Origin: Candidatus Bathyarchaeota archaeon
GTDB lineage: Archaea > Thermoproteota > Bathyarchaeia > Bathyarchaeales > Bathycorpusculaceae
DNA: 54,222 nucleotides
Direction of reading: 5' to 3'
NCBI GenBank assembly: GCA_963827165.1
Contig: CAWGZR010000001.1
Span: 1 to 54,222, forward strand
Positions within the stretch are counted from its first letter, which is position 1; each line of letters starts with the position of its first letter. Of the stretch, positions 36,133 to 51,034 are shown piece after piece. Position numbers and translations under genes: made by a program. The notes under the pieces were generated by a model, which did not search any database, was not told where the DNA came from, and was given only the letters and a program-made list of their open reading frames with translations.

Positions 36133-36292
36133 TTAGAGAAGTTTGGAGAAGTCATCATATACTTTCTTCCTATGACCCATAAAAAGCACTGTTAATTGTT
36201 TTTGATCGGCGTTTATTTCTTAAGATAGCTCGGTAGTCCCTTGACCTTATCCTCCAAAATCTCAGGGATGCAACGTTTTTCCTGCTGTCCAT
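36133..36292 (-). pseudogene. RelE/ParE toxin C-terminal fragment with frameshift
   Basis: FWRIRSRDYRAI / EINADQKQLTVLFMGHRKKVYDDFSKLL*. Confidence 0.7.
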
Positions 36293-36595: not shown

Positions 36596-36811
36596 ATGAA
36601 AATCGGTGTTACTGTACACAAAGAAGGAAAATTGTATGTTGCAGCTGATCCGGTCACCGGCGTTACTAGTCAAGGGAAAACTTGTGATGAGGCTTTGGCG
36701 AATTTCCAAGAGGCCTTTGGGCTTTGGTTTGAATGCGCGGAAGATTGGGAGAAGGAACGGGCATTGAATGGCGCGCCAGTGGCTACCTTGGTTTTGGATT
36801 TAAAAATTTAG
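36596..36811 (+). CDS. hicB: HicB-family antitoxin
   Basis: YVAADPVTGVTSQGKTCDEALANFQEA. Confidence 0.85.
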   Translation: MKIGVTVHKEGKLYVAADPVTGVTSQGKTCDEALANFQEAFGLWFECAEDWEKERALNGAPVATLVLDLKI

Positions 36812-37038
36812 TTTCCAACGAATTTGAGAAATTCTTCATCTGTGATCCCTGCTTGAAACAAAATGCCTTTTAGCGTTCCAATGGCGATCTCTTCGTGCTT
36901 TGGAACTATGACGGTTCTTATTTTTCCATTGTAGAAGCCTTTTAGAACTATATGGCTTCCTCGTTGTCTGACGATTTGAAAGCCAAATTTACTTAAGGTC
37001 TTAATCACTTTTCGATGTGAGTACGGCTTCATCCTCAA
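36808..37038 (-). CDS. hicA: HicA-family toxin, convergent with hicB
   Basis: GFQIVRQRGSHIVL...VIVPKHEEIAIGTLKGILFQAGI. Confidence 0.9.
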   Translation of the reverse strand: MRMKPYSHRKVIKTLSKFGFQIVRQRGSHIVLKGFYNGKIRTVIVPKHEEIAIGTLKGILFQAGITDEEFLKFVGN

Positions 37039-37238
37039 GTGAATTCACTACTATTCAGTTCAAAATGCTAACAGAAATAACTTGCCCTATGTAAGAAGCT
37101 GTGTTCTAAAATGGATGCAGAGACATCAGACCGGGGTTGCGCTAAAAATTGAGTAAGGTTGTCAAAAACTTGACTATCTATAGGCGTATCGGCAAAAAGC
37201 GACTCCCCGATTTGCCAAGAGTTCTGGTCATCCGTCAT

Positions 37239-39014
37239 CTATTGCTTTTGTTCATCAAGGGCTTTTTGGTCGAGATAGTATTTTCCGTTGATTTCCTTGA
37301 AGACTTTTGTTTGTCCTTTGCGTTTTTCCATAACTCTCACGAACATTCGTGATAGTCCCAGTTCACTGGCGGTTAGCGCTGTTTCTGGGCTTAGCGCTCC
37401 CTTCTCTTGGAAAGTTTTGATGTTTTGCCGCACTCTCTCTCCGCTCCAAACTTGCTCCTCAGATGATTCCTGTTGACTTGATTGCGAAGACTCCATCTGA
37501 GCGGTTTGTGCGGCGACTGGAACTGAGTTTTGCTGCTGGGTTTGTGTAATTGGTGTTTGAGATTGTTGAGTCGTATTGTCTGAGTTGCTTGCGATGTCGC
37601 CTTTTGTCATTCGTGTTGATGAGTTATTTCCTTGAGTTTCAGACGCACTTGGTTCTAGTTTAACAGTGTATTGTGTTTTGTTTTTCACTGAAATAGATAC
37701 GGGCATTGAAGGCTTATAGCCTGTGGCATTGGCTTTTATTGAGTAGTCTCCTTTTTTCGGGTTTTTGAAAACGATTTGTCCGTTGTCTTTTGTGGTTCCA
37801 GTCAAGTTTTCTGGGCCTTCAGCTGAAACATTGGCTGCAAGAATGGGTGAAAGCGTTTGTGAGTTTTGTACGGTGATTACGAGTTTTCTTTGGCGACTGT
37901 ACCATAAGAGGAGGATGAGGATTAGCACAACTATGATGATTATGACTATGATTATCCAGGTGACCCCTGCGGTGGATGAGCTGGGGGGATTAGAAGCGGT
38001 TGGGCCTGAAGACGTAGATGTTGAAGGACCCGAAATAACTGACACGGTGCCCCCTGCGCCATTAGCAACATATATTGCGCCATTGCCTGGATCGTAAGTT
38101 CCTACCCAAGGCGAATTGCCTACAGTTATGGTTTGAACCACTTTGTTATCGCTGTCTGATATAACTGCAACTTCGCTGTTTTGGTGAAGGGCTACGAATA
38201 CTTGTCCAAGTGCAGGATCGTAAATTAACCCTTCAACTTGCACTTCGTCGTTCAAGTTTGAAATAGTAGCAACAACCGCATAATTGCTATCCGAAATAAC
38301 CGTGACGACAGCCCCGTACAAACCGACACCGGTGGATACGAATATTTCGTTTTTCTCCGAATCGTAGGCTAAAAATGAGGGGGGACCCGGAATAGCCACG
38401 GTTGCAACTACTGTATTAGCGCTATCAGAAATTACTGAAAGAGAATAGTTTCTTGTGTCAGTGCTAAGATCGACTACGAATATCTCGCTTTTGCCAGAAT
38501 CGTAGGCGATGCTAAAAGGTTCGCTTCCTACCCGGATAGTTGCTATGACCGTGTTTGTGCTGTCTGAAATTACTGAGACAGTGCTGTCATATTGATTGGT
38601 TACAAATAATTCGTCTTTGCTAGAATCATAGGCTATATTATAGGGGGATTCTCCCACAGGTATTGTAGCAATTACAGTGTTGGTGCTATCAGAAATAACC
38701 GAGACGCTATTACTATACAGGTTGACTACGAATATCTCGCTTAGTTGGGAGTCATAAGCTACACCGTATGGGTAGCCTCCGACTGGTATGGTTGCTATCA
38801 CGGTGTTTGTGCTGTCTGATATGACTGAGGTTGTGTTGTCTTGACCGTTGGCTACGAATATTTCGCCTTTGGCGGAATCGTAAGCTGCGCCTGATGGAGC
38901 GTTTCCGACAGGAATTGTTGCGGTTACGCTTAAGGCGTGAACATTGTTAACTGCTGAGAAAACAAAAATTGCAATAAATAACAAAACTAATAGATTCCAA
39001 GCTTTAGTTTTCAC
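37239..39014 (-). CDS. YVTN/YncE beta-propeller surface protein with TM, carboxypeptidase-regulatory-like domain and C-terminal wHTH-like domain
   Basis: About seven ATIPVG..P...AYDS...EIFV.N....VSVISD repeats; GTG start after GGAGAGGGAG. Confidence 0.85.
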   Translation of the reverse strand: MKTKAWNLLVLLFIAIFVFSAVNNVHALSVTATIPVGNAPSGAAYDSAKGEIFVANGQDNTTSVISDSTNTVIATIPVGGYPYGVAYDSQLSEIFVVNLYSNSVSVISDSTNTVIATIPVGESPYNIAYDSSKDELFVTNQYDSTVSVISDSTNTVIATIRVGSEPFSIAYDSGKSEIFVVDLSTDTRNYSLSVISDSANTVVATVAIPGPPSFLAYDSEKNEIFVSTGVGLYGAVVTVISDSNYAVVATISNLNDEVQVEGLIYDPALGQVFVALHQNSEVAVISDSDNKVVQTITVGNSPWVGTYDPGNGAIYVANGAGGTVSVISGPSTSTSSGPTASNPPSSSTAGVTWIIIVIIIIVVLILILLLWYSRQRKLVITVQNSQTLSPILAANVSAEGPENLTGTTKDNGQIVFKNPKKGDYSIKANATGYKPSMPVSISVKNKTQYTVKLEPSASETQGNNSSTRMTKGDIASNSDNTTQQSQTPITQTQQQNSVPVAAQTAQMESSQSSQQESSEEQVWSGERVRQNIKTFQEKGALSPETALTASELGLSRMFVRVMEKRKGQTKVFKEINGKYYLDQKALDEQKQ

Positions 39015-39084
39015 TGAAATCTCCCTCTCCTTCTTAGGCGGATATTTCAAGGAAGATTTAAGGCTTATGCTTGCTCGCTTGGGG

Positions 39085-40121
39085 TATCTTTTCCTGAAAT
39101 TATTTCCGCTTTCGTTTTAACGTGTTTCATGGTTTTTCACCATTTGAATAATTCTTTTGCTTGCCACATCCAACATTCCGGCGGTAACTTTCTGATAAAT
39201 GCTTGATTAGGAGTCTCTGCATAATGCATGTTAAGGCTTCCATGCATCCGATTATTATACCATCCAAGCAGCTCAGATAAAGAGCCATATCTGCCACGAT
39301 GATGCTCATAGAAATCAAACCATTTCTCAACTTTACCATTAGTCTGAGGATGATTCACCCCACAAAGTATCTGCTTGACTCCCTCTGACTTGAGAAAGTT
39401 CTCAAACACATGATCAGCTAAACCATGCTTATCTCTTCTCTCACCATAAAACTGGCTACCGTGATCGCTTATACATTCTCTAATACTGATATTGTAATTT
39501 GATCTACATCGCAGCAACGCCTCTCTTAGCAATAAAACAGAGTTTTCAGCGGTTGCATTGCTAAATTCTCCACCTGATAGAATCTTTCTTGAAGCATCAT
39601 CTAGAACAACGCATACTTGCTTTCCATGAACTGCCTTGCTGATATGCCAGTCCATATGGACAGCTGAGAGTGAATGTTCTCGTTCATAGCGAATCCATGG
39701 TTTCCGTCGTTTCTGTTTATTCTCCTGTTCACTCGCATAACCCTTCGCAAGCATAATCTTATGTATAGTGTTATGGGGTATTCTCTGTTTCTGTTCAATA
39801 TCGATTATCGTTTCCAAATAGAGAGCGTTCAAGTGGTGGCTTTGCCATTCATCGATTATGGTTTGTTCTTGTTGATCTGAGATTTTGGCTGTTGGCCTTC
39901 CAACGTTTGATCCTACAGTGGGAATGGTTTTTGTTTTCTTGTAGATTCGGTAGATTTGTCTAAACCGTCTTGACGTAACTCCCAGATACTCTGAAAGCCA
40001 TGATTGTGTTGCCTTTCCTTCTTCAAATTGCTTAATGCACCATCGGAGTTTCTTGTGATCTCTAAGTTTAGCCATGCAAGCCTTTGGTTTTAAATAGAGG
40101 AAATAATTTTGGGAAAAGATA
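39085..40121 (-). mobile_element. IS481-family insertion sequence (1037 bp) with 23-bp TIRs and 15-bp TSD
   Basis: TIRs TATCTTTTCCTGAAATTATTTCC and revcomp TATCTTTTCCCAAAATTATTTCC (21/23); CTTGCTCGCTTGGGG at 39070-39084 and 40122-40136. Confidence 0.9.
39137..40075 (-). CDS. DDE (rve) transposase, IS481 family
   Basis: N-terminal HTH; RYEREHSLSAVHMDWH, VLDDASR, SDHGSQF, HPQTNGKVEKWF. Confidence 0.92.
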   Translation of the reverse strand: MAKLRDHKKLRWCIKQFEEGKATQSWLSEYLGVTSRRFRQIYRIYKKTKTIPTVGSNVGRPTAKISDQQEQTIIDEWQSHHLNALYLETIIDIEQKQRIPHNTIHKIMLAKGYASEQENKQKRRKPWIRYEREHSLSAVHMDWHISKAVHGKQVCVVLDDASRKILSGGEFSNATAENSVLLLREALLRCRSNYNISIRECISDHGSQFYGERRDKHGLADHVFENFLKSEGVKQILCGVNHPQTNGKVEKWFDFYEHHRGRYGSLSELLGWYNNRMHGSLNMHYAETPNQAFIRKLPPECWMWQAKELFKW

Positions 40122-40216
40122 CTTGCTCGCTTGGGGCATAATTGTCTTAAAGCACGAAAACTTTAGATGCAAAAATTTATTAGAAGCTGTGCGAGACGTT
40201 ATCATAAGTGATTTTT

Positions 40217-40588
40217 GTGAAAATTGTAGATAAGATAATTCTGACTCATCTCCTTGTGCGTGACATGAATAAGGCAAAAGCATTCTATACTGATGTGTTG
40301 GGCTTTGAATCAACCCAAGACACCGAGTGGGGAAAAGGAAACCGCGGAGTCTTCGTCGTTCCTCCTGGCGGCGGCACATACATTGCTCTTGATTTCATGT
40401 CCGAACAAAAAGAGTTCGATACTGCGAGAAACTTTATTATTTCAACACCGGATGTCGAAGCAGCGTACAAGGCAATTAAAGCAAAGGGCGTTAAGCCAAA
40501 CAGCGAGATCATGCCTTACCCACCTGGCGGCAGATTCTTCAGCGTCAATGATCCCGATGGCAATGTCTGGAACATTCTGCAATCATAG
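40217..40588 (+). CDS. VOC/glyoxalase family protein
   Basis: VRDMNKAKAFYTDVLGF...DVEAAY...FSVNDPDGN. Confidence 0.9.
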   Translation: MKIVDKIILTHLLVRDMNKAKAFYTDVLGFESTQDTEWGKGNRGVFVVPPGGGTYIALDFMSEQKEFDTARNFIISTPDVEAAYKAIKAKGVKPNSEIMPYPPGGRFFSVNDPDGNVWNILQS

Positions 40589-40672
40589 AAGCTTGTGGAT
40601 TCCTTAATCAATCAATCAGTTAATCTTTCAACCAGGCAAAATGGGGTCACACCCGCAGAGAAATACTGGGTG

Positions 40673-40996
40673 TTAGACCCGAACGGGCAGCACCTCACGA
40701 ATCTCCACTGAACCCTCATTCTCGAAAATCGGACATGCTTTAAGCTTTGAAGCAGCACTGTCTTAGTTGTCAGCCTCTATCACTATGTATCCTCCGAGTA
40801 ACGAGTCACTAAACTCGACACTCGACACGTTTGCGCCGTTTTTGCCTAAGATTATCCTGCCTTCCGGCTTAGGCCTGTTTCCAAGCCGCAAGTCTTTTGA
40901 GACATACTTGGCCCAATTTGCAAAGCGTTTTATATAATCATCAGTTAATTTCTCTTTGGGAAATCCACCGCGGAATAAAACGACATAAGTGTTCAT
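40673..40996 (-). pseudogene. YCII-family protein with in-frame stop at 40763-40765, possibly a sequencing error
   Basis: GGYIVIEADN*DSAASKLKACPIFENEGSVEIRE continues in frame to the stop at 40673. Confidence 0.75.
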
Positions 40997-41054
40997 TGAA
41001 AACCAGCATCCAAAGCTTATTTATTATTGTGCAAATAAATAGATATTGATAAAG

Positions 41055-41468
41055 ATGCCACAAAATAAGGCGGTTAATGATGCGTCTCGACTGATAGATG
41101 CGAGAATCAAGGAGTTAGCCGATTGGCGTGGAGAGATGCTTTCGCACCTCCGTGCGTTGATTAAGCAAGCCGACCCTGAGGTCGTGGAGGAAGTTAAGTG
41201 GGTAAAGCCGTCCAATCCGCTTGGTGTTGCGGTTTGGTCTCATAACGGTTTGATCTGTACCGGCGAGGTCTATAAGAATGCTGTAAAGATGACATTCCCA
41301 AGCGGTGCCTCGTTGGATGACCCTTCAGTTCTCTTCAATTCCTGTCTTGAGGGTAGCGCTAGGCGTGCCATCGACTTCCACGAAGGTGACAAGGTTAACG
41401 AGGAAGCTATGAAAACGCTTATTCGCGCCGCCGTGGCCCTAAACACGTCTTCGGCGACAGCTAAGTAA
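41055..41468 (+). CDS. DUF1801 (YdhG-like) protein
   Basis: IDARIKELADWRG...ADPEVVEEVKW...FNSCLEG..RRAIDF. Confidence 0.88.
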   Translation: MPQNKAVNDASRLIDARIKELADWRGEMLSHLRALIKQADPEVVEEVKWVKPSNPLGVAVWSHNGLICTGEVYKNAVKMTFPSGASLDDPSVLFNSCLEGSARRAIDFHEGDKVNEEAMKTLIRAAVALNTSSATAK

Positions 41469-41706
41469 GGAATTCTACCTCGGTTACTTCGTCGTTGTGT
41501 TCTCTTGAATTCCAGCAGGGGGCAGGATTCCAAGAAGAACTAAAGCGGCGCCCAAGACCTCAAGCAGCATTCAAGCAACATAATTCTTAATGGAAGATAT
41601 ACAAAAGTTAAATTCCTGTTTTACCTAATTGGATATCCGGCAGATATTTTCAGAGAATCAATTAACAAAATACTTCTCCGTAAAAACCCCATTATTTTTG
41701 CTCATA

Positions 41707-41733
41707 ATGGTGCCGGGGGGGGGGACTTGAACG
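41707..41733 (-). repeat. tRNA 3'-end remnant J7
   Basis: Reverse strand reads GTTCAAGT, a C run, then GGCACCA (T loop to CCA). Confidence 0.7.
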
Positions 41734-41852
41734 CTCACTCTAATGGAGACTTCGCCCGCTTCTCTTTTTTTTAACCATTATTTGTCCATTCGTCTTTTTG
41801 GATGAGAGTTATATTGAAGTTGAGACACTGAATTTAAGGCAGATGAGTTCAA

Positions 41853-42542
41853 TTGGGCAAGACCCGCCTTAGCGTAACCAAACAAGCGGTCATAGGTTTA
41901 GCGGCGCTTACAATTGTGTTGTGGGTGATCTTGTTTGTACCTGCTGGGACGCTTAATTATTGGCAAGCATGGATTTTTTGGCTCATTTTTGTCTTCTGCA
42001 TTTTGATAGTTAGCGCCTATTTCCTACAAAAAGACCTTACGCTTATCGCGGGTCGGCTAAAAGTTGGGGCTACGGCGGAACAAGACCGCATCCAACGATT
42101 AACACAAGTTGTCATCAGCGTTTTTTTCATTTTGCTGCTATTGGTTCCTTCTATTGACCATCGTTTTCAATGGTCCATCGTACCCTCAACTTTGAGTTTA
42201 GTAGCTGATGCTTTCGTTGGGTTTGGGCTTCTCATTATTTTTTTGGTCTTCAAAGAGAACACATACACCTCAGTTCTTGTCGAAGTCAAAGAAGGACAAA
42301 AAGTCATATCCACAGGTCCGTACAGCAAAGTACGGCATCCCATGTATTCGGGAGCCCTATTAATGCTGCTCTTCATACCTCTTGCCTTGGGTTCGTATTG
42401 GGGATTGCTTGCGTTTCCGCCAATATTGGCAGCAATCGCAGTGCGGAGTATAGCAGAAGAAAGGTTTTTGGCGAAAGATTTACAGGGTTACAATGAATAC
42501 CGCGAAAAGGTTCGTTACCGCTTAGTTCCGTATGTTTGGTAA
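41853..42542 (+). CDS. Isoprenylcysteine carboxyl methyltransferase family membrane protein
   Basis: KVISTGPYSKVRHPMYSG, EERFL..L.GYNEYREKVRYRLVPYVW. Confidence 0.9.
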   Translation: MGKTRLSVTKQAVIGLAALTIVLWVILFVPAGTLNYWQAWIFWLIFVFCILIVSAYFLQKDLTLIAGRLKVGATAEQDRIQRLTQVVISVFFILLLLVPSIDHRFQWSIVPSTLSLVADAFVGFGLLIIFLVFKENTYTSVLVEVKEGQKVISTGPYSKVRHPMYSGALLMLLFIPLALGSYWGLLAFPPILAAIAVRSIAEERFLAKDLQGYNEYREKVRYRLVPYVW

Positions 42543-42645
42543 GGTAAATATTAGGGTTTCATCCACCCACAAAGAAAGTCGTCTTTTATTGCCCAAAGTT
42601 ATCTTAAAACTATCAAAACGTCAAGAATTAAGTTAAACTCAAATC

Positions 42646-42700
42646 CTCTGGCAATTCAGGTAGGGGAATGCTTTGAACCCACGTTTAGACTTCACGCAAA
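42646..42700 (-). repeat. Degenerate junction J6
   Basis: TTTGAACCCACGTTTAGACTTCACGCAA matches J1 TTTAAACCCACGTTTAAATTGCACGCAA. Confidence 0.65.
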
Positions 42701-42744
42701 AACATTTCTTGCATGGCGTTGTTAAAGCATTTACCTCTCGCAAG

Positions 42745-43108
42745 CTATACCAAACACACGTCTTTTAATGCCTTAAGATCGTTATCGCTCGTGTAGAATT
42801 TGGCCTTCCAATGGCGAGCAGTGGCATAAACAAGAGCGTCTGCAAAGTGTAGGTTATGTTCAAGGCTGTAGTCTGCTGCCTCAAGGGAGATTGATTGGTC
42901 GACTGGCGCAATCGTCGTCTGGCTGAGAGCGGCAACTGCCAGTAAAGCTTCTTCTTCACCCTTTACTTTCTTAATTTTTTTGTAGATTTCGTAGAGTACG
43001 ACAACTGAAGTGACTATCTCTTTAGGCTGCGTTGATTCAATTATCTGTTTGTATTGTCGCGCCTTTGGTAAGCTGTTCAATCCATCCAAAACTGTCTATG
43101 CTAATCAA
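42745..43108 (-). pseudogene. vapC: PIN (VapC) toxin frameshifted near its N-terminus
   Basis: TTG 43108 gives MISIDSFGWIEQLT (catalytic Asp), but the remainder (PKARQYK...HFADALVYA...YTSD) is in another frame. Confidence 0.8.
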
Positions 43109-43313
43109 TTCTGTCAGACTCGTCTCGCAAGCCTTTTGTATCAAGTCCGGGGATAAATCCTTCTGTTTCTTTTATGGGACGAACAGGTATGTACTGGATA
43201 ATTCCATGTTTAGTGATGGCAACCATCTTGTCTCCTGGTTTGATTCCCGATTGCTTGCGTAGTTTCTCGGGGATAACCACCTGATATTTCTTCGATACAA
43301 TAACTGTTTCCAT
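43101..43313 (-). CDS. AbrB/MazE-family antitoxin
   Basis: VSKKYQVVIPEKLRKQSGIKPGD. Confidence 0.9.
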   Translation of the reverse strand: METVIVSKKYQVVIPEKLRKQSGIKPGDKMVAITKHGIIQYIPVRPIKETEGFIPGLDTKGLRDESDRID

Positions 43314-43442
43314 CGATCATCAACTGGTAATACGAATACTAAATCGATGATAAAAAAACATTGTTGCACTCGCGTATGCGAACCTCGGCGCAAATTATGT
43401 TTAATTGCGCTAATTTGTTCAGAAAAACTGAAAGTACTTTGA

Positions 43443-43481
43443 TTGGTAAATTGGCGTCGGGAAGGACACTAGCACCAATTT
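43443..43481 (-). repeat. tRNA-Ser att-like junction J5
   Basis: TTGGTAAATTGGCGTCGGGAAGGACACTAGCACCAATTT. Confidence 0.8.
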
Positions 43482-43614
43482 GTTGTGAAAATCGTTGGAG
43501 TAGTCCAATAAATTTTCATGCCACTTCTATTGACGCTAGCGTCGTAAACTTTACCAGTAAAAAACTCAGCTGGTTTAACTCGCTTTTCAAGGTTAAAGAT
43601 TGCTTTGAAATAAG

Positions 43615-43875
43615 TTACTTGTACACATTGTCATGGTGCTCGTACCTCCTAATCGTGACTACTTTTCTTTCCTCATCTATGTCGTAGACAAGAACGAAGG
43701 ACCCAACATGTACACGGCGCATGTGCTGCATGGGACTCTTCAACGGCTTGAATTGTTGAGGATTTTCCAAAATCTTATCCACCTTCTTTGAGACTGCTTC
43801 AAACTGCATTGAATCTTTCTTTCGCAGCTTCTTGAATGTTCTATCTACTTTTTCAACCACTTCTAAAGAATACAA
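43615..43875 (-). CDS. relE: RelE/ParE/YafQ-family mRNA interferase toxin
   Basis: ILENPQQFKPL...RRVHVGSFVLVY...YEHHDNVY. Confidence 0.85.
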   Translation of the reverse strand: MYSLEVVEKVDRTFKKLRKKDSMQFEAVSKKVDKILENPQQFKPLKSPMQHMRRVHVGSFVLVYDIDEERKVVTIRRYEHHDNVYK

Positions 43876-43879
43876 ATAA

Positions 43880-44110
43880 TCACTTGGAGTATCTCTGGGT
43901 GAAGTTGTTGACTTTTACAGTTTTTTCACTTTGAGAATGTTTTAGGCTTTCTATGAACTCTGGTCTTAACTCGGGCTCCATAACGCACTCTTCAAACTGT
44001 TTTGCCATCAAGTTTATGGCTTGGCTCTTGTCTCTGAGCCCGTATTTGGCTTTGAGTATGTTTAGTATCCGGTTGGTCCTGTCGTCTATGGTCACTATGG
44101 CTTTTACCGT
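43880..44110 (-). CDS. Antitoxin (DUF2683-like); probable start position carries ACG
   Basis: (T)VKAIVTIDDRTNRILNILKAKYGLRDKSQAI...EPELRPEF; GGTGAT RBS precedes ACG at 44110; GTG at 44095 is the alternative. Confidence 0.75.
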   Translation of the reverse strand, partial: TVKAIVTIDDRTNRILNILKAKYGLRDKSQAINLMAKQFEECVMEPELRPEFIESLKHSQSEKTVKVNNFTQRYSK

Positions 44111-44219
44111 ATTATCACCACATTAATGCAATGTTAATCTGAAATATATAAAGTACTCCATAATATTTTCGAATTTTATTCGGGTTACCCAATCTGAAAT
44201 GATATGCGAATAGTCTGCT

Positions 44220-44312
44220 GTTGAGCTTATTTAGTAAATATAAGCCTAAAATAGATTCTAAATCGGCAAACGGCGTCGGGGGTTGATCCCAGCATCAATT
44301 TACCAGAAAAAA
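44220..44312 (-). repeat. tRNA-Ser att-like junction J4 with arm
   Basis: GTTGAGCTTATTTAGTAAATATAAGCC...GGCAAACGGCGTCGGGGGTTGATCCCAGCATCAATTTACCAGAAAAAA. Confidence 0.8.
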
Positions 44313-44343
44313 CTTGCGGACTATAGTAACAGGACAACTCAAG

Positions 44344-44787
44344 TTAGGGCTCAATGAAGGGATTTTGCGCCTTAATGAATCCATATTTATTGAAGTCTCT
44401 CACATTTTCGGTGTAAATGACGTCTATCTTGTTTGCTTTGGCAGAAACGGCTAAGATGCAATCAAAGACCTTGGAACCTGATAACCTCTTGCTCTTAACG
44501 AGGCTGAAAACTTCCCTAGGTACCGACTCGGAGGCAGCGATTTTCCCGAGTTCATCACATTCCCATAGATCGATGCATAACTCAGCGGCTATGTCAGGAG
44601 ACAAGGGCGATTCGACTCTCTTAGCGTTGGTGATGACAGCAAAAAACTCAAAAAGCACTTGCTGAGAAATACATGCTTCTATCTCCCCTGCCATCGCTCT
44701 TTCTATTATGCTGCTGGCAACCTTCTGGTTAGGAGATGCCTTGTTGTAAGCATGTACAAGGATGTTCGTATCAAGTAGTATCCTCAT
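44344..44787 (-). CDS. vapC: PIN-domain (VapC) toxin
   Basis: ILLDTNILVHA, QVLFEF, VFDCILA, IYTENVRDF. Confidence 0.92.
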   Translation of the reverse strand: MRILLDTNILVHAYNKASPNQKVASSIIERAMAGEIEACISQQVLFEFFAVITNAKRVESPLSPDIAAELCIDLWECDELGKIAASESVPREVFSLVKSKRLSGSKVFDCILAVSAKANKIDVIYTENVRDFNKYGFIKAQNPFIEP

Positions 44788-45013
44788 AAATCTCTTCCCT
44801 AGAAAGGCGCCCTTTTATCCGGCCAAGGTTAGGCGGGTTTTCGAGCATTTCACGAGCTAGCTTTGCCTTACGGCATCCTCGGACTACACTGAGTTTGGCA
44901 ACCCCCTTTTTTACAACTTCAATGCGTAATACGTCGCCATCTACTAGACCAAGTTTTTCCCTGACGCCTTTGGGCAAGTAGACTTTGTCCTCGTAGAAAG
45001 TAGTTTCAGCCAT
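44771..45013 (-). CDS. AbrB/MazE-family antitoxin
   Basis: KVYLPKGVREKLGLVDGD...LSREEIYED; overlaps the PIN start. Confidence 0.85.
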   Translation of the reverse strand: MAETTFYEDKVYLPKGVREKLGLVDGDVLRIEVVKKGVAKLSVVRGCRKAKLAREMLENPPNLGRIKGRLSREEIYEDTT

Positions 45014-45136
45014 ATCAACACTGGTTACCCAGTGAATTGGGCAAAATATAAACTTTGCCAGCACCATGCTTTCCATGCTGATTTGCCTTCTGAGGCTTAA
45101 AAGCTACCTGAAAATTTGAATGAACTTTGAATATGT

Positions 45137-45216
45137 CTATTTAGTCAAAATAAGCTCATGACTATCCGATTTTGTAAAATGGCGCCGGGAGGGGGATCCA
45201 GCACCAATTTACTCGT
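45137..45216 (-). repeat. tRNA-Ser att-like junction J3 with arm
   Basis: CTATTTAGTCAAAATAAGC...GTAAAATGGCGCCGGGAGGGGGATCCAGCACCAATTTAC; 18 nt identical to the tRNA-Ser 3' end including CCA. Confidence 0.9.
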
Positions 45217-45345
45217 AAATACTGGCAACGGTTGCCCGTCTCCAAATCAAGTGAGCAAAACCTCTTTTCTTCCTATCTCGGCATGAAGAGACATTCATAT
45301 TTCTTAGGCCGTGGGCGAGCCAAACTCAAAATGCCCTAGAAATTC

Positions 45346-45744
45346 CTAAATCCAGTTTCTTTTCGTTTCTTTTATTGAATCAAAATGGGGGTCGTCTGAT
45401 AAGATGATTGCCTGGTTGGCTATGGCTGTTGCGGCAATTATGCAGTCGCCCATTGGTACATTTCGATATTTGCTTCTTAGAAGACCAGCTTGTTTGGCTA
45501 TTGGTGCGCTTAAGCTTTGGATTTTCAATCCGCTTTGGGTTAAGTTTGCATAGCAGATTTCTGCCTCTTCTTTTCCGATTTGTCCGCAGACTGTTTGAAT
45601 CGTTTCGCTGATAACGATTGTGGGCAGTATGCCTTCTTTACGCTGGATTATTTCTTTTAGCCTTTTTGTGGCGTTTTGCTTGGTTTCAGGGATATCCGAA
45701 TAGAAATACTCCATGACGAATCTGCTGTCAAGGACCGTTCGCAA
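45346..45744 (-). CDS. vapC: PIN-domain (VapC) toxin
   Basis: TVLDSRF, ISE, PMGDCIIAATA, ILSDDPHF. Confidence 0.92.
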   Translation of the reverse strand: MRTVLDSRFVMEYFYSDIPETKQNATKRLKEIIQRKEGILPTIVISETIQTVCGQIGKEEAEICYANLTQSGLKIQSLSAPIAKQAGLLRSKYRNVPMGDCIIAATAIANQAIILSDDPHFDSIKETKRNWI

Positions 45745-45747
45745 GCT

Positions 45748-45978
45748 TTAATATTCCTCTCTGAGCTTATCTATCTGCCTTTTCATTTCTTCTGGTTTTG
45801 CGTATTTCGAGTAAATACCTGCGCAGTCTTCCAGTTTTCTGATTGGCGTAAAAATTACTTGACCATGCTCGGTTGTTTCGACCAAAAGTTTGTCGCCTTC
45901 CTTTATTACGAGTTTTTGCCTGACTTCTATTGGTATGGTTGTTTGTCCTTTTCGGGTAACCTTTACAACGGTTGTCAT
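45748..45978 (-). CDS. AbrB/MazE-family antitoxin
   Basis: VKVTRKGQTTIPIEVRQKLVIKEGD. Confidence 0.9.
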   Translation of the reverse strand: MTTVVKVTRKGQTTIPIEVRQKLVIKEGDKLLVETTEHGQVIFTPIRKLEDCAGIYSKYAKPEEMKRQIDKLREEY

Positions 45979-46145
45979 TTGTAATCTCAACGAAAGAAGG
46001 CAATAGTACTTTAAAACTATTGTCCTACTTCAAATGCAAAGTACTGCTAAATTTTGTGAAGTGAGAAATTATTATTAAGCGCGCTGAAGAAAAACGCCAA
46101 TAAGCCAACAATTCACCTTATTTGGAATGAAAATGCCAAATTCAG

Positions 46146-46200
46146 CTCTATCAGTAATTTGGCGCCGGGAGTGGATCCAAGCACCATTTTACCAGTAAAA
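46146..46200 (-). repeat. tRNA-Ser att-like junction J2
   Basis: CTCTATCAGTAATTTGGCGCCGGGAGTGGATCCAAGCACCATTTTACCAGTAAAA. Confidence 0.85.
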
Positions 46201-46244
46201 ACATTTTTGACGTCACCACTAATATGCAATCAACTATCAACACA

Positions 46245-46269
46245 GGTTCAAGTCCCAGCGGTCCCACCC
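46245..46269 (+). repeat. 3'-end remnant of a different tRNA, in opposite orientation
   Basis: GGTTCAAGTCCCAGCGGTCCCACC: T loop, T stem and acceptor-like strand. Confidence 0.6.
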
Positions 46270-46337
46270 CAAGCTTGCTTTGAAAAGAACTGCAATAGAG
46301 CGCTCATTCTGTCATAGATTATTTCAAAAAGCTTATC

Positions 46338-46353
46338 TGTGTACGTGTACACA
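46338..46353. promoter_or_regulatory. Palindromic operator upstream of vapB
   Basis: TGTGTAC-GT-GTACACA, 10 bp before ATG 46364. Confidence 0.5.
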
Positions 46354-46363
46354 TACATGAAAC

Positions 46364-46600
46364 ATGGGCACAAAGACCATATCAATAAAAGATGAGGCGT
46401 ACGAAGCTTTACTCCGTGAGAAGGCAGACAAAGAGAGCTTCACAGAAACTATCTTGCGCATAACCAAAAAGTCTGGCAAAATAGCAGATTGCTTTGGAAC
46501 CTGGAATATGACTGACGAAGAGGAAGAAGCCATTCGAATCGAACTTTCCAAGGGCTGGCACACAATTCAGGAGAGAATCTCAAATGAAATGTCTAGATAG
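46364..46600 (+). CDS. vapB: VapB antitoxin (DUF217/UPF0330 type)
   Basis: MGTKTISIKDEAYEAL...KESFTETILR. Confidence 0.88.
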   Translation: MGTKTISIKDEAYEALLREKADKESFTETILRITKKSGKIADCFGTWNMTDEEEEAIRIELSKGWHTIQERISNEMSR

Positions 46601-46976
46601 TGACTTGCTCGTCGCCATCTTGCGCGGCAAGGAAGACGCGCGAACAATAGTTGATGCGTTAGATGAAGACTCTAGAGGAGCAACAACATCTGTTAATGCC
46701 TTCGAAGTTTATTTTGGCGCAAACAAATCGGCGAAGAAGGATGGAAACGTAAAGGAAGCCTCCAAACTGCTCGAAAGGCTAACAGTTTTTCCATTAGACC
46801 TAAGTTCTTCGCGAAAGGCGGCTGAAATATCCGCGAAACTGATGGGGAAAGGCGAAACAATAGACTTCAGGGACGCCATGATCGCAGCAATTTCTGTGGA
46901 AAACGGCTTGACGCTGGTTACACGTAATATTTCCCACTTTAAGAGAATAAAAGACTTGAAGACCGAAAAATGGTGA
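46584..46976 (+). CDS. vapC: PIN-domain (VapC) toxin
   Basis: CLDSDLLV, FEVYFG, DAMIAA, LVTRNISHF. Confidence 0.92.
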   Translation: MKCLDSDLLVAILRGKEDARTIVDALDEDSRGATTSVNAFEVYFGANKSAKKDGNVKEASKLLERLTVFPLDLSSSRKAAEISAKLMGKGETIDFRDAMIAAISVENGLTLVTRNISHFKRIKDLKTEKW

Positions 46977-47090
46977 TGGTTTGCATGCAAAATTTTGGGG
47001 TCAAATCCACAGGTCCGCTATTTGATTATTCTTATCAGTAAAAGTTTTCGCCGTGATTTTAGAAATTTTGACAAATAAGCAATTATTGCG

Positions 47091-47174
47091 ACTATTTAGC
47101 TAAAATAACCCTAGAAAAATGCTTGAAAAAAGGCGCCGGGAGTAGGTTTAAACCCACGTTTAAATTGCACGCAA
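47091..47174 (-). repeat. tRNA-Ser att-like junction J1 with arm
   Basis: ACTATTTAGCTAAAATAACCCTAGAAAAATGCT...GGCGCCGGGAGTAGGTTTAAACCCAC vs tRNA flank TAGCTAAAATAACCTCAAAAATGCT...GGCGCCGGGAGGGGGATTTGAACCCCC. Confidence 0.9.
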
Positions 47175-47403
47175 GGTTCTGGGCATCAAGAGAAATACTA
47201 GGAGCGCGTGTGGCAACTACCTTAGATCCTTTGGTATACGGCAGGTTTTCATAATGAGCAGCGGAGTTGGCTAAAAAACAAAAGAGCGTGCTTACCCGGC
47301 TAATCCCGTAATGCCCACTCGTTTGTCCCATGCAAAGCTTGTCGAAAGCATAAAGAAAATTAATCAGGAGTCAGCTGGGGTCTGCTGGTTGGACATTCCG
47401 AAT

Positions 47404-49038
47404 CTACTGCTGGGAATGTAACTCTTTCACCCATGCTAAGAGCTCGTCGGAGAGTTCTTCCTTCGCGATGACTGCCTCAATCAGTGAGAATTCCTTGTTG
47501 CCATGAGCTTCTTCCAGCGACCTGTAAAGCGTGTCGCAGTTGTCGCAGTAGTAGCCTTTTCCTCCCCAGAGTTCGGCTATCCTCGCATAGGGCCAATTCA
47601 CAAGTTCATTAAACCGGGCAGTCGGGTAGAACAGCTGTTGCATTCCCCAACGGCTGTTGTTGAAGACTATGAAAATTGGGTTTATACCGTAGCGAGGGCA
47701 ATGGCAGATCTCTTGACCCGTCATCTGGAAGCCTCCATCGCCGAGCAGAACTAGCGGGCGCTTCCCAGTGGAGACGGCGTAACCAATGGCGGCTGGAGTT
47801 CCGAAGCCCATGGATGCATAGTACGGATCAGCAATGACCGAAGGCGCCTCGATCTTGGTCGTCACGAACAGGCAGTCTCCCGTATCAGAAACGATAGGCA
47901 TCTCACCGTACTTGTCGAAGAACCAGTTTATGGCGTCAACTATCTCCTTCACGGTGACCACTCTTTCCTTTTCGTATTTGCATGCCCTGTTAAGTATCAA
48001 TTCTAGCTTGGCTGGGAACTGGAGGTTTTTCCTCTGAAGGTTCCTGCCTAAGAGATCTTCAACTAAGGGTCTAAGTGGGACCTCGTCGTACTGGTGGTGT
48101 CCCATAACAACTTTCCTCGAAAGGCAGAGAATAAGGTTTTCTTTCTTCAACTTCTTCAAGCGTAGTCCGAGATTCATGTCAGCGAGAATCGTGCCAAGCA
48201 TGAGGAGGCAATCCGAGTTCTCGACGAGTTCCTGCGCAACGGGATTTCCCGCCGTGCCCAAATAGGTGCCAAAGTAGTAGGGCTCGTCTCTGGGCATGAC
48301 GTCTCGACCAAGGAAATCCGATACGATCGGCACTCCAAGCCTCTTAGCCAACGTCAGGGCAGACTCGTTCATTCTGAATCGATCGACCTCAACCCCGACA
48401 ATGATGAGCGGCGAGTTGGCTGCTGAGAATCTGCGCAGGATTTCGTCTGCCGCTTCTCTGATTGCGCCCTCGTCCGGCCTGAAAGCCTGCATCTCTTGCT
48501 CAGGGACAGTTATTTCCTTGTCGACCATATCGCGGGGGATTTCTATGTAGACCGGAAGCGAAAATTCCTGACAAGCTTTCATAGCATGAAGGATTCTTGC
48601 GCAGGCAGTTGTTGGGCTGTCCAGAACGACGGCTTCCTTCGTTAATTCCTTGAAGACATTAAGCTGCGAATCGAAGTCCTTGACCATGTGGTGCAAGAAG
48701 GCGTCCTTTATCTTCTCGCCTTCGCCTGGCCCACCGGAAATGACGATGAGCGGGGTTTTCTCCGCGTAGGCACAGGCTACCGAGTTCACCATGTTGAGTC
48801 CGCCTGCACCATACGTGATGCATGCTACAGCGGGTTTGCCTGTCGCTTTTGCTGCAGCGACTGCGGCGAAGCCGACGCCCGGTTCATGGGAGAACGTGTA
48901 CAGCTTCAAGTCGGAGTCGTCTTCAATGACTTTGAAGAATCTGATGACCATGTCTCCAGGGATGCCGAAGACAGATTTCGCGCCTGCGTCTTTCACCGCT
49001 TGAAGCAGGAACTCGCCTATTGTGAGTTTGCCTGTCAT
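47404..49038 (-). CDS. ipdC: ThDP-dependent indolepyruvate/phenylpyruvate decarboxylase
   Basis: VFGIPGD, SHEPGVGFAA, TYGAGGLN, LHH, SDTGDCLF, YYASMGFG, GDGGFQMTG...NN. Confidence 0.88.
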   Translation of the reverse strand: MTGKLTIGEFLLQAVKDAGAKSVFGIPGDMVIRFFKVIEDDSDLKLYTFSHEPGVGFAAVAAAKATGKPAVACITYGAGGLNMVNSVACAYAEKTPLIVISGGPGEGEKIKDAFLHHMVKDFDSQLNVFKELTKEAVVLDSPTTACARILHAMKACQEFSLPVYIEIPRDMVDKEITVPEQEMQAFRPDEGAIREAADEILRRFSAANSPLIIVGVEVDRFRMNESALTLAKRLGVPIVSDFLGRDVMPRDEPYYFGTYLGTAGNPVAQELVENSDCLLMLGTILADMNLGLRLKKLKKENLILCLSRKVVMGHHQYDEVPLRPLVEDLLGRNLQRKNLQFPAKLELILNRACKYEKERVVTVKEIVDAINWFFDKYGEMPIVSDTGDCLFVTTKIEAPSVIADPYYASMGFGTPAAIGYAVSTGKRPLVLLGDGGFQMTGQEICHCPRYGINPIFIVFNNSRWGMQQLFYPTARFNELVNWPYARIAELWGGKGYYCDNCDTLYRSLEEAHGNKEFSLIEAVIAKEELSDELLAWVKELHSQQ

Positions 49039-49338
49039 AAATGAGCCTAAAAGAATGAGGGATTGGAAAGCTAATAAACCTATGTAGAGACGGGTTGTGC
49101 ACAAGCAGGCGGCAAGAAGCCTAAGAACACTGGTCTCCGGCCAATATAGTAGGTTCCGCGGGAAGTTTTGTCACGCACTAACTCAGTTGGTCTGGATGTT
49201 TTGCGAAATTGACTGAAGCATTTAATCACAACGAAGGCTGCGTACATCGACAGAAAAACAAATCGAATCGGCAAACTAATATGAACGAAGTTGAGCTTTA
49301 TAGCTAAAATAACCTCAAAAATGCTCTATCTGGTAAAT

Positions 49339-49453
49339 TGGCGCCGGGAGGGGGATTTGAACCCCCGCGGCCCCGAGAGGCCACAAGCTGCTTGGTGCTT
49401 GCCTTAGGCAAACATCTCCAGGCTTGCTCCCTGCCTGGCTAGGATACCCCGGC
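49339..49453 (-). tRNA. tRNA-Ser(GGA) with 26-nt canonical 37/38 intron (49390-49415) and encoded CCA
   Basis: GCCGGGG...CAAGC CT GGA G[intron]A GCTTG, long variable arm, GGTTCAAATCC, TCCCGGC G CCA; BHB motif with one C-A mismatch. Confidence 0.95.
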
Positions 49454-49641
49454 AACGTAAACCAAACTTCGCTCTTAGCTGGTTTGCAACCTTTCTCTTT
49501 GTCAGGCTGAATTTAAAGTTTTATGGTAGATTTCCAAGTGCAATTTTGTTGCGAAGGTTTTTGGCTTCCTGCTCCAAAGTCATGCTTTTCTTGATGTTTG
49601 GAAACTAGCAAAAAGAAAACTTTTCGTTGCAGTGTCTTTTT

Positions 49642-49920
49642 TTATGCTGGCTGAACGGTTACTTCTAGAATTTCGCCTGCAATGTTTGGTTTTTCCTCTC
49701 GAGTCATCAATGTAAGTGTCAATTTTGGGATTAGTATACGTCCCTGCTTGTCCATTCTTGCATAGAAGTATCGGGGGAGCATCGTTTTTTCGGTTTCTAC
49801 GCTGATTCTTAGCATCTGGTTTTGCTCCATTTTGAATTGCCATACGATTGTTTTTGGAATTTGTACTCTGTTTCCTTTTTCAAGTACAGCTGGGAAGGTT
49901 ACGTTTTGATCTAACGGCAT
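49642..49920 (-). CDS. Tandem double-AbrB-fold DNA-binding protein
   Basis: AVLEKGNRVQIPK and ARMDKQGRILIPK: two AbrB-like motifs in 92 aa. Confidence 0.7.
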   Translation of the reverse strand: MPLDQNVTFPAVLEKGNRVQIPKTIVWQFKMEQNQMLRISVETEKTMLPRYFYARMDKQGRILIPKLTLTLMTREEKPNIAGEILEVTVQPA

Positions 49921-49950
49921 GGCTTGTCTCCGTTTAATGTTTATTTTCTT

Positions 49951-50025
49951 TGACTTTTGTTGACTATTATTGACTATTATAGACTACTATTGACTATTAA
50001 AGACTATTGCTGACTATTACAGACT
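49951..50025. repeat. 7.5 tandem 10-bp repeats, consensus WGACTATTAN
   Basis: tgacttttgt tgactattat tgactattat agactactat tgactattaa agactattgc tgactattac agact. Confidence 0.95.
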
Positions 50026-50236
50026 CAACCTGCAACAGATCCAAGCCCCAAACCAAAAAAGCAACTCAAAACACAAAGAAATTTTTCCCAGGAAAAATCA
50101 GCAGCATAAACCACCGCACGGTAAAACATTTGTGTCAAGCCATCCCAGCCAGATAGTAATCAAACATGTTGCATTGGACAAAGTTTTTATTCGCGTTTGA
50201 AACTTAACCTTCCGCGTTAAGATAGAGGATTTCGAA

Positions 50237-51034
50237 ATGACCTTTCAAAAAGCAGATTTCGTAGTGATCGATTATTCAGCAAAGGTTAAGGAAACAAACG
50301 AAGTTTTCGACACCACAAAAGAAGATGTGTCTAAAAAAGAGCATCTTCACAAAGAAGGCGAAATATACGAGCCTAAACTGGTTGTAATAGGAGAAGGCTG
50401 GGTACTCAAAGCCTTAGACGACAGCTTAACATCCATGGAGATAAACACTCCCGCAACCGTCGAGATCTCACCGGAAAAAGGCTTCGGACAGCGAGACCCC
50501 GAAAAAATCAAACGTGTACCTCTTAGGCAACTTTTGGCAAAAGAAATCAACCCAGTTATCGGCGCACGCATAGAATACCAAGGCAAAATGGCAAGCGTCC
50601 GAGCAATCGGAGCCGGAAGAGTTCTCTTAGACTACAACCCGCCACTAGCCGGAAAAACCCTAATTTACGAAGTAACAATTAACAAAAAAATCGAAAGCAA
50701 CGACGAAAAAATCGCGGCACTCGTCCACCGCAGAATACCCCAAGTAGAGGAACCACAGTTCAAGATAACTATCCAAGACAAAACCCTAACCATCGACATG
50801 CCTGAAGTAGCCTTCTACATCGAAGGAATACAAATCGCAAAACGAGGCATCGCAATTGACATCCAAAAATTCATCCCCGACATAGCTGAAACCAAATTCG
50901 TAGAAACTTTCAAAGCCGAACCAAAACCCGCACCCATAGAGCCAGCGCCAGCAGAAACGACCACCGAGACAACACCCGCGCCTGAAGCTCCAGCGTCAAC
51001 ACCTGAGCCAGAAGATAAAGCGGCAAAAGCATAA
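50237..51034 (+). CDS. slyD: FKBP-type peptidyl-prolyl isomerase, long archaeal SlyD type
   Basis: DFVVIDYS..EVFDTT, ISPEKGFGQRDP, GRVLLDYNPPLAGKTLIYEV. Confidence 0.92.
   Translation: MTFQKADFVVIDYSAKVKETNEVFDTTKEDVSKKEHLHKEGEIYEPKLVVIGEGWVLKALDDSLTSMEINTPATVEISPEKGFGQRDPEKIKRVPLRQLLAKEINPVIGARIEYQGKMASVRAIGAGRVLLDYNPPLAGKTLIYEVTINKKIESNDEKIAALVHRRIPQVEEPQFKITIQDKTLTIDMPEVAFYIEGIQIAKRGIAIDIQKFIPDIAETKFVETFKAEPKPAPIEPAPAETTTETTPAPEAPASTPEPEDKAAKA

Follow-up and report, generated by a model that had tools for sequence, protein, structure and literature searches.

Behind the tRNA-Ser(GGA) gene of a Candidatus Bathyarchaeota archaeon (assembly GCA_963827165.1, contig CAWGZR010000001.1) lies a row of small gene cassettes separated by short palindromic joints, and the locus raises the question of how these joints were formed and what placed the cassettes there. 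The window referred to throughout is this entire 54,222-bp contig, which is part of a genome of 3.13 Mb with 44% G+C, labelled G000; relatives' genomes are labelled G0nn, tail loci Lnnn and contigs Cn, and joints are read in the orientation of the tRNA. The explanation that we favour, with a confidence somewhat above even, is that the joints are hybrid attachment sites arising from the site-specific insertion, one at a time, of small non-autonomous cassettes at the 3' end of tRNA-Ser(GGA) by what would be a tyrosine-type recombinase acting in trans. An earlier note on this contig had called the joints attP-like; the geometry of the arms and the position of the breakpoints bear this out, but the units are not tandem self-sufficient integrants, as no integrase was found in the window cassettes, in 38 arrays of relatives or in the cassettes of five relatives.

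Anatomy of the palindromic joints

The array is anchored by a tRNA-Ser(GGA) gene with a 26-nt intron on the complementary strand (49339–49453), identified by ARAGORN with introns allowed and overlooked by a plain scan; a match to it is present in 59 of the 61 genomes of the genus, G000 counted among them. The last 16–17 nt of the gene (ATCCCCCTCCCGGCGC[C]) are the core that is repeated along the array. Copies of the tRNA tail (TGGCGCCGGGAG on the forward strand) are found without mismatches at 45180, 46160 and 49339, and imperfectly at 47131 (one mismatch), 43452 (two mismatches) and 44271 (three mismatches).

Four joints on the complementary strand, J2 (43441–43497), J3 (44259–44317), J4 (45169–45225) and J5 (46149–46207), are imperfect palindromes in the order tail, spacer, tRNA tail, with the consensus ...TTTTTACTGGTAAAWTGGTGCTGGGA-TCCCCC-TCCCGGCGCCA-WTTTAC..., which is close to the one drawn up by eye in the earlier note. 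The right arm corresponds to the acceptor strand of tRNA-Ser(GGA) with its discriminator, CCA and present flank, and the left arm is an inverted copy of it that the tRNA gene itself lacks; the 16 of 19 matching positions given previously are correct. The tail ends in 11 nt (TGGTGCTGGGA) that repeat the acceptor strand and CCA (TCCCGGCGCCA) in inverted form, so that the tail, the 6-bp spacer and the tRNA tail together make a 28-bp site of 11-6-11 form. The spacer TCCCCC is the 3' strand of the T-stem and varies from 5 to 7 bp across the joints. Inverted arms around a 6–8-bp spacer are the core architecture of tyrosine recombinase sites (lox, dif, att). tRNA-Ser(GGA) fits the right half of the palindrome by two transitions. 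J4 is the best preserved, with an exact tRNA tail at 45180–45191, and in J5 the tail occupies 46176–46207, the spacer 46171–46175 and the tRNA tail 46160–46170. J3 has a decayed spacer (TCAACC) and the tail CCCGACGCCG; J2 is also decayed, and its left flank is found again at C13:7440–7552 with a different right side.

Pairing between the arms was examined as a 21-pair helix in 60 tRNA-Ser-type joints from the window, relatives and metagenomes, chosen by their tail pattern and also by a Ser-like right arm, a choice that leaves the slide and shuffle controls unaffected. Complementary bases fill 73.3% of the arm-pair cells, compared with 35–46% when the partner is slid by 1–3 columns. A standard pair is present in 52–100% of the joints at each of the inner ten pairs (columns 21–30 with 38–47) and in 65% at column 20/48, but the outer arm (columns 10–15 with 53–58) pairs in only about 40–65%, and pairing there is restricted to joints whose next cassette has a TTTACCAG-type head. 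The inverted arms around a T-stem spacer described earlier are therefore present, but arms of about 18 bp occur only beside this one head type, and 11-6-11 is the form found in general.

The earlier note had proposed a test for covariation between the arms, and none is present. Shuffling the partners among sequences gives 73.9% pairing, the observed value is equalled or exceeded in 478 of 500 shuffles, and a covariation score of 0.093 compares with 0.097 for the shuffled set, with no compensatory change. The right arm is almost invariant, as one would expect of a segment able to become the end of the tRNA, and the left arm varies (GGTGCTGGGA, GGGGCTAGGA, GGTGCTAGTA) without compensation. Single-strand folding, suggested at the same time as a check for attC-like hairpins, gives z scores of -3.5 (J4) and -2.0 (J5), which beat shuffled sequences, and of -0.8 and +0.6 for the remaining two window joints, which do not; the better folds are confined to the tRNA-sense strand, on which two mismatches turn into G-T pairs. 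Because the arms do not covary, the joint looks like a protein-binding palindrome of 11-6-11 form rather than an attC-like hairpin.

A conserved tail, free cargo and the breakpoints

The left arm is not confined to this array. It is the end of a single conserved block of about 32 nt (TTTTTACTGGTAAAWTGGKGCTRGGATCCCCC), here called TAIL1, that runs from a T run to ATCCCC(C) and adjoins unrelated cargo. A profile of the four joints retrieves the left arm at 14 sites in this genome (E<0.01, two rounds together), and their right sides differ. A 24-nt left-arm pattern with at most three mismatches has 41 matches in 14 of 41 genomes and none in the reversed control; it is present in 12 of the 24 other genomes of the same genus and in one genome of another family. 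The exact IUPAC form of the tail occurs in 118 metagenome contigs, and the tail pattern was found in no viral contig. Among 156 distinct tail sites collected from genomes and metagenomes, the tail is followed by tRNA-Ser-like TCCCGGCGCC (at most two mismatches) at 59 and by something else at 97. At these 97 sites the 10 nt past the spacer match the inverted inner arm at 5.35 of 10 positions, compared with 3.2 of 10 in the reversed control, and no tRNA gene with a tail like the commonest non-Ser right half (...TTCAAATCCCCCGCCCAACACCA) is present in 61 genomes.

The position at which homology breaks was estimated by change-point analysis for all 151 sites having 110 nt on each side, and the informative pairs (n=15) are those with at least 80% identity in the left flank and at most 45% in the right. 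In 12 of these pairs homology ends at spacer position 4–6, and in the other three, whose right arms are alike there, it ends at position 13–15, 7–9 nt further on. The earlier note had counted breakpoints outside the spacer as evidence against itself; with 12 of 15 in or at the spacer, this outcome did not occur. A further 23 pairs with the same right and different left sides are uninformative, homology beginning where the conserved tail begins. At the tRNA the shared core is 16–17 nt long with its left edge at the spacer, and elsewhere it ends at the right edge of the spacer (about 6 nt); what the two have in common is the spacer.

One unit that recurs beside different neighbours is a 1.1-kb cassette with a gene for a 306-aa DnaJ protein, found at L088 (1065–1985), L008, L009, L147 and L158 and flanked by tail and spacer on both sides (both bounding tails are present in L088 and L008). 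Across metagenome contigs and the genomes G010 and G023, the flank on its tail side keeps at least 96% identity. The cassette has five different right neighbours and, in L088 and L008, two different left neighbours. At its left edge the differing tails become identical at GATCCCC, as judged by eye in this one pair.

Relatives provide 38 arrays downstream of tRNA-Ser(GGA), of which 20 cover 20 kb and 18 cover 7–10 kb. Many of these contain TAIL1 joined to the tRNA tail at varying distances, and others have none within reach. A conserved head follows each tRNA tail, with two subtypes across the arrays, WTTTACCAGTTnGAGnTnTTTTTGAGSTTATTTTRYCTAAAW... and TTTTTTAAGGC...TTATTTT..CTAAATAG.CGCAAT..GCTTATTTG, whose TA-rich boxes may be promoter or operator sequences. 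The bare site is preserved in G019 and G047 (tRNA...TCCCGGCGC/TTTTTTCAAATTAGCC), and in G053 it is occupied by a 5.2-kb insert, which reads TAIL-ATCCCCCTCCCGGCGC/TTTTTTCAAAATAGCC at its far end and supplies the encoded CCA of the tRNA at its near end; comparison of the two shows that a core of 16–17 bp is duplicated at the tRNA and that the CCA is brought by the insert. From the tRNA tail to the next tail the cargo is unrelated between genomes and ranges from 0.8 to 13 kb, with 0.9–13 kb in the relatives. In the cassettes of five relatives it includes response regulators with a PAS kinase (5.2 kb), a histidine kinase (1.9 kb), AsnB, GlnA, a P-type ATPase, a permease and Lrp (13.3 kb), an Mrp/Nuo-like operon (8 kb), MarR with an MFS transporter (3.3 kb) and a PIN pair (1.1 kb), and in the window it consists of toxin-antitoxin pairs and a thiamine-pyrophosphate enzyme (Pfam). 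All that the window shares with 20 other arrays is two toxin-antitoxin gene cores, with 73% and 89% identity, which lack heads and tails.

In the window itself the row of cassettes can be followed outward from the tRNA, with all features on the complementary strand except where stated. The head of cassette 1 (49296–49338) consists of AATTTACCAG and a conserved box, GAGGTTATTTTAGCTATAAAG, recognized from repeat families D7 and D10 and from alignment downstream of the tRNA tails in 21 arrays, and this box too is a candidate promoter or operator. The cargo of cassette 1 (47176–49295) encodes a 566-aa thiamine-pyrophosphate enzyme (47404–49104; Pfam TPP_enzyme_N/M/C). Cassette 2 (46208–47121), which is in the opposite orientation on the forward strand, encodes a VapB antitoxin (46364–46600) and a PIN toxin (46584–46976), and is followed beyond J5 by cassette 3 (45226–46148; AbrB/MazE-type antitoxin, 45748–45990, and PIN toxin, 45346–45744). 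Cassette 4 (44318–45168), between J4 and J3, has another AbrB/MazE-type antitoxin (44771–45076) and PIN toxin (44344–44787), cassette 5 (43498–44258) a DUF2683 protein (43880–44095) and a ParE toxin (43615–43875), and cassette 6 (42700–43440) a third AbrB/MazE-type antitoxin (43101–43313) with a PIN toxin (42745–43089), all assigned by Pfam. Further out, at 35977–36024, there is a decayed TAIL1 joint (nhmmer E 0.0026 / 6e-06) with a head-like box after it, which shows that the array extends over 13 kb or more from the tRNA. The window becomes syntenic again with G051, a relative with an empty site, below about 24.2 kb, which suggests that the window from about 24.2 to 49.3 kb is all inserted material.

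A second class of joint separates cassettes 1 and 2 (47122–47175) and bounds cassette 6 (J1, 42660–42699), and both belong to repeat family D20. The first of these, J6, has the tail TTGCGTGCAATTTAAACGTGGGTTTAAACCTAC, the tRNA tail TCCCGGCGCC and the head of the next cassette, and J1 has the tail TTGCGTGAAGTCTAAACGTGGGTTCAAAGC and a decayed acceptor part. Starting from 42660 and 47125, they are 86% alike over 28 nt (42672–42699 and 47147–47174) and keep a T-loop-like stretch, as the earlier note had observed; the third member of its second class, J7, is probably the fragment at 41700–41745 (complementary strand), which is a third kind of tRNA-like 3' end, a T loop followed by CCCCGGCACCA, with similar fragments in the G013 array. 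The class-2 tail, TAIL2 (TYGYGTGRAATTTAAACGTGGGTKTAAAYCTAAC), occurs in 11 of the 24 other genomes of the genus, with two matches in the reversed control, and is followed by the acceptor end of tRNA-Ser(GCT), tRNA-Leu or tRNA-Ser(GGA). The proposal that two lineages share this tRNA holds at the level of the tails, both of which are genus-wide. Arrays at tRNA-Ala(TGC) in this genome (C10:392660–423515 and C5:948000–968400) have a tail of their own (GGGGATTTTGCGGGTGATATCTCC...) and a long core with the T loop, and an intact integrase of 409 aa directly follows tRNA-Ala(TGC); long-core joints with a T loop therefore go with ordinary integrase elements, and the short-core palindromic joints are a separate system.

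Two loci of a different kind lie at tRNA-Pro. In G016:C4 (L226, 10550–12210) and G023:C8 (L228, 10904–12427) the gene for a Zn-ribbon integrase of 450–480 aa is followed, after 90–130 nt, by a complete tRNA-Pro gene of the same orientation, and a unit of about 4.5 kb ending in TAIL1 follows the tRNA. This order of integrase, tRNA and cassette recalls an integron platform.

Other identities were considered for the tail and for the right halves beside it. For the commonest non-Ser right half, an origin as the tail of another real tRNA is not supported, as no gene with this end was found in 61 genomes and no match among the 41 tRNAs of this genome. The tail is not the end of a coding gene, as open reading frames (ORFs) that end in it (...F-Y-W-stop) are only 0–49 codons long. 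Nor is it the end of an insertion sequence (IS) with a 487-aa DDE transposase, since alignment of three copies places its ends at CAGACTGTG.../...CACAGTCTG, flanked by 4-bp duplications, and the tail falls outside. This IS1182-like element, with ends CAGACTGTG and 4-bp duplications, is represented in the genome by eight copies or fragments, and a TAIL1 site lies no more than about 200 nt from four of these (C9:23654–25377, C13:24000–25654, C3:138166–139824 and C3:146125–147410; loci L052, L054 and L056). Three mapped insertions are at the centres of small palindromes, for example GAACCC-AATT-GGGTTC, and recall the IS elements that target integron attC sites. A conserved non-coding module of about 55 nt (GACTCAGACC-GTTTC-GGGGGTAAGCCCGGTCCGACTCA...) accompanies about one third of the tails; it is located upstream of many TAIL1 sites (e.g. 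L084, L102, L085 and L133) and, in some cases, on the right-hand side (L076, L083 and L094). It has no Rfam match, and tRNA is the only known RNA family around the tail sites or in the window.

Other features of the contig can be noted briefly. An 1818-aa ORF (23917–29373) inside the region that is extra relative to G051 has no Pfam match at E<=1e-4. The gene for a 603-aa beta-propeller/CarboxypepD_reg protein (37239–39050) holds tandem repeats of 126 bp (38467–38886), relatives of which are present on contigs C13, C5, C11, C3 and C9. Beside the 5' side of the tRNA there are at least six repeats with a 10-bp period (TTGACTATTA-like; 49940–50025) upstream of a 92-aa ORF (49642–49920) that has no Pfam match. 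The very end of the contig carries a tRNA gene (54153–54214; Rfam, 42.6 bits), contigs C7 and C8 likewise stop just past a tRNA-Ser(GCT) gene, and tRNA-anchored repeats seem to break this assembly.

The recombinase and competing explanations

In the scheme that we propose, a cassette would consist of its own right arm and conserved head, a free cargo, and the conserved tail of about 32 nt. A tyrosine-type recombinase, encoded at another place in the genome or brought in by a visiting element, would occupy each arm with one of two subunits and carry out strand exchange at the borders of the spacer derived from the T-stem. A circular cassette carrying tail, spacer and its own right arm would recombine with the tRNA gene, and each such insertion would rebuild the tRNA tail, including its encoded CCA, and push older cassettes outward. 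The build of the site and its conservation, the modular cassettes, the breakpoints at the spacer and the lack of recombinase genes in the arrays are observed directly; the class of the enzyme, the circular intermediate and any activity at present are what we infer from the sites.

The genome contains nine Phage_integrase matches, none of them in the window, and Pfam identifies no recombinase gene among the window cassettes. Its intact recombinases are encoded at C10:392791–394020, C10:46359–47783, C12:78944–80323 and C5:108989–110089. A tblastn search with the nine integrase-like ORFs gives no match at E<=1e-4 in the 38 arrays, and the 20-kb arrays, searched at E<=1e-3, yield a single one (G045, E 4.7e-4). 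No integrase is present in the cassettes of the five relatives, nor within the 4.8 kb available upstream of the tRNA in the window. The only recombinase-type gene nearby is that of an rve-type IS at 39070–40121. It encodes a 312-aa transposase and has 27-bp inverted ends (39084–39110 and 40096–40122); in a contig of soil run X1 the IS is missing and 39069 is joined to 40122, so it is a recent and polymorphic insertion.

This absence of the IS is the sole clean joint in the contigs of four soil runs across 34000–50500; none of these contigs skips or circularises a cassette, from which no verdict on mobility follows, and one X2 contig departs from the window over about 500 nt left of 49330.

Screening of the surroundings of tails, at 30 loci from the genus (3 kb each) and 80 from metagenomes (up to 4 kb), reveals C-terminal pieces of the common Zn-ribbon integrase family of the genus at four loci, a point in favour of the proposed scheme, lying 110–160 nt to the right of the tail and spacer and reading toward the site at L013, L028 and L110, and about 800 nt to the right and reading away at L132. 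A complete element with both head and tail was found neither in these loci nor in the 38 arrays. At L013 (G002:C6, 1–1364) a terminase-like ORF starts exactly at an inverted tRNA 3' fragment, as does a 64-aa pseudogene piece from the C terminus of an integrase, and this locus is a provirus remnant within the integrase of an element that once stood next to the tail site.

Several observations weigh against the insertion of cassettes in trans as we propose it. No recombinase was found that pairs with the site. No integrase lies within 16 kb upstream of the tRNA in seven of eight relatives, the eighth, G016, having one 9 kb away, and no archaeal XerA scores above the curated cut-off in any of 41 genomes. 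A Xer-like ORF (C5:108989–110089) was rejected as a candidate enzyme, being sporadic (three of 24 same-genus genomes), and G010 has tails with only broken integrase matches at E<=1e-10. The 15 breakpoint pairs derive from only four left-flank families, with ten in the dnaJ family, and are therefore not independent. Selection of the joints by their tail pattern inflates the conservation of the left arm, which is in part a selection effect, and some right arms owned by cassettes are not palindromic to the tail, such as TACCAATCTTT of the dnaJ cassette. There are no extra copies of the window cassettes elsewhere in this genome, which lends no support to activity today. Finally, identical sequences would be expected from a transposase that used 21-bp inverted ends and an invariable 6-bp target.

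The strongest competitor, though an unlikely one in our view, is that each unit was once a full element with its own integrase at the tRNA and has since decayed to cargo and att sites, in the manner of cis-mobilizable elements (CIMEs), without ever having moved as a small cassette. Such a three-step history is the route to tandem structures at tRNA genes set out in the published accounts (PMC5704250; 10.1101/2020.12.28.424599), and would account for the integrase fragments beside four tail sites, the decay of several window joints and the lack of cassette-level variation between the window and its relatives other than complete replacement. Independent decay, however, should leave ragged ends and integrase debris, whereas conserved heads and tails surround unrelated cargo of 0.8–13 kb in 38 arrays without an integrase remnant, and the 1.1-kb dnaJ unit remains nearly identical along its tail-side flank amid different neighbours, with sharp edges at the spacer. 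Decay by the CIME route explains the missing integrases but fails to account for the conservation of heads and tails and for the sharply defined borders of the dnaJ unit.

We regard as still less probable that the units resemble non-autonomous transposons, with 21-bp inverted ends (TCCCGGCGCCAATTTACCAGT ... ACTGGTAAATTGGTGCTGGGA) that a transposase or casposase-like enzyme inserts into TCCCCC with a 6-bp target duplication, the left end mimicking a tRNA tail. Such insertion predicts the observed joints exactly and is consistent with the 97 sites located away from a tRNA-Ser tail, with the commonest non-Ser right half that has no tRNA gene, and with the plentiful DDE transposases in the genome. 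Yet the supposed duplication is almost always the same TCCCCC, and this constancy favours an overlap that must match over a copied target, which is an argument and not a proof. The matching outer inverted end is present in only one head subtype, and the IS1182-like element beside the tails has unrelated ends and a 4-bp duplication. The casposon-type alternative offered in the earlier note is not favoured either: only the 6-bp spacer is shared at non-tRNA sites, and the sole Cas1 match in the genome is on another contig (C4) and has an in-frame stop. Serine recombinases in the genome are fragments, and no Y1 HUH transposase was found there.

It is very improbable that the array is a true integron, in which the palindromes would fold as single-stranded attC-like hairpins for an integron-type integrase and the tRNA tail would act as attI. 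One site per cassette, integrase-less clusters and toxin-antitoxin cargo do recall chromosomal integrons and clusters of attC sites lacking integron-integrases (CALINs) as presented in the text of PMC9668308, and with the two G-T pairs the inner arms of the tRNA-sense strand pair fully, J4 folding best. The lack of covariation and the failure of two of the four window joints to fold better than shuffles count against it, as do the absence of an integrase beside the tRNA in seven of eight relatives and the absence, by eye, of GTTRRRY-type R/L boxes. We dismiss as the least probable of all the idea that the joints are terminator or operator elements shared by small operons and resemble tRNA incidentally, since, although a T run opens the tail after each operon and the heads seem promoter-like with a second palindrome, the core is an exact 16–17-nt copy of the tRNA end that brackets inserts missing at empty sites, and gene content switches exactly at the joints.

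Relation to known systems

Elements stacked at tRNA genes with partial tRNAs between them, and integrase-less CIMEs, are already described in the literature (PMC5704250; PMC6563490; 10.1101/2020.12.28.424599; PMC3146451, in the portions relevant here). A CIME, as characterized in the text of PMC5704250, is flanked by att sites, lacks integration genes and is moved only by the recombinase of another element. Like the CIMEs related to ICESt1 of Streptococcus, as far as that account extends, the units at tRNA-Ser(GGA) have att sites on both sides, no integration genes and a tandem arrangement at the 3' end of the target gene; unlike them, they combine shared heads and tails with a free cargo, go down to 0.8 kb in size, are archaeal, and form 38 arrays in which no parent element was found. 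Tycheposons of Prochlorococcus and tandem archaeal integrated elements likewise insert beside tRNA genes, push older units outward, leave partial tRNAs between them and carry adaptive cargo (10.1101/2020.12.28.424599; PMC6563490, in the sections drawn on here). Tycheposons are defined in the portion of the former source drawn on here by their integrase, a tyrosine recombinase in 910 of 937, whereas the present units have none and end in a shared palindrome-forming tail.

The arm-spacer-arm geometry of dif, lox and att cores is present here as 11-6-11, with breakpoints at the spacer. The dif site, in the description consulted from PMC8371274, has two 11-nt inverted arms and a 6-nt spacer, with cleavage at the spacer edges. 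In contrast to dif, which is single, there are 14 sites in this genome and no XerA above the cut-off in 41 genomes, one arm is a working part of a tRNA, and conserved flanks reach 30–130 nt past the core. Integrative mobile elements exploiting Xer (IMEX) act at dif through a host Xer and a single dif, neither of which describes the situation here. Casposons at tRNA 3' ends are alike in having inverted ends and a stretch of the tRNA end repeated between tandem copies, but the arrays contain no casposase or PolB, and the shared stretch is 16–17 nt at the tRNA and about 6 nt elsewhere, not 14–15.

Integrons with IntI and attC are reported in archaeal metagenome-assembled genomes, in which toxin-antitoxin cassettes are common, according to the searched text of PMC9668308, which does not mention tRNA. 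Like the integrons and CALINs of that text, the arrays consist of promiscuous cassettes that each end in one imperfect palindrome, often without a nearby integrase. They differ in the absence of IntI by the insertion site, in the lack of attC-type covariation or a hairpin requirement, and in having a tRNA gene as the anchor; the cassettes also appear to bring promoter-like heads and may hold whole operons. In the main texts found on integrases, tRNA and mobile elements of Bathyarchaeia, there are virus and provirus surveys only. The locus contributes a well-delimited dif-like palindrome of 28 bp, in which a functional tRNA end forms one half, together with natural variants that place the exchange in its spacer.

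More tentatively, and with appreciably less confidence than in the insertion of cassettes in trans, we suggest that the system may be an archaeal counterpart of integrons in which a tRNA gene serves as the landing pad. A recombinase whose gene lies outside the array would act at a 28-bp dif-like site, half of it the end of tRNA-Ser(GGA), and would shuffle promoter-bearing cassettes, from 0.8-kb toxin-antitoxin pairs to 13-kb metabolic operons, among Bathyarchaeia, with secondary landing sites scattered in the chromosome. The site is short and symmetric and its exchange region is mapped from natural variants, which makes the mechanism directly testable; if an enzyme does act in trans on so small a site, archaeal genetics could also make use of it. 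How the abundant and uncultured Bathyarchaeia exchange genes is poorly understood; a cassette system with short defined ends and no enzyme of its own would explain the hypervariable islands behind their tRNA genes.

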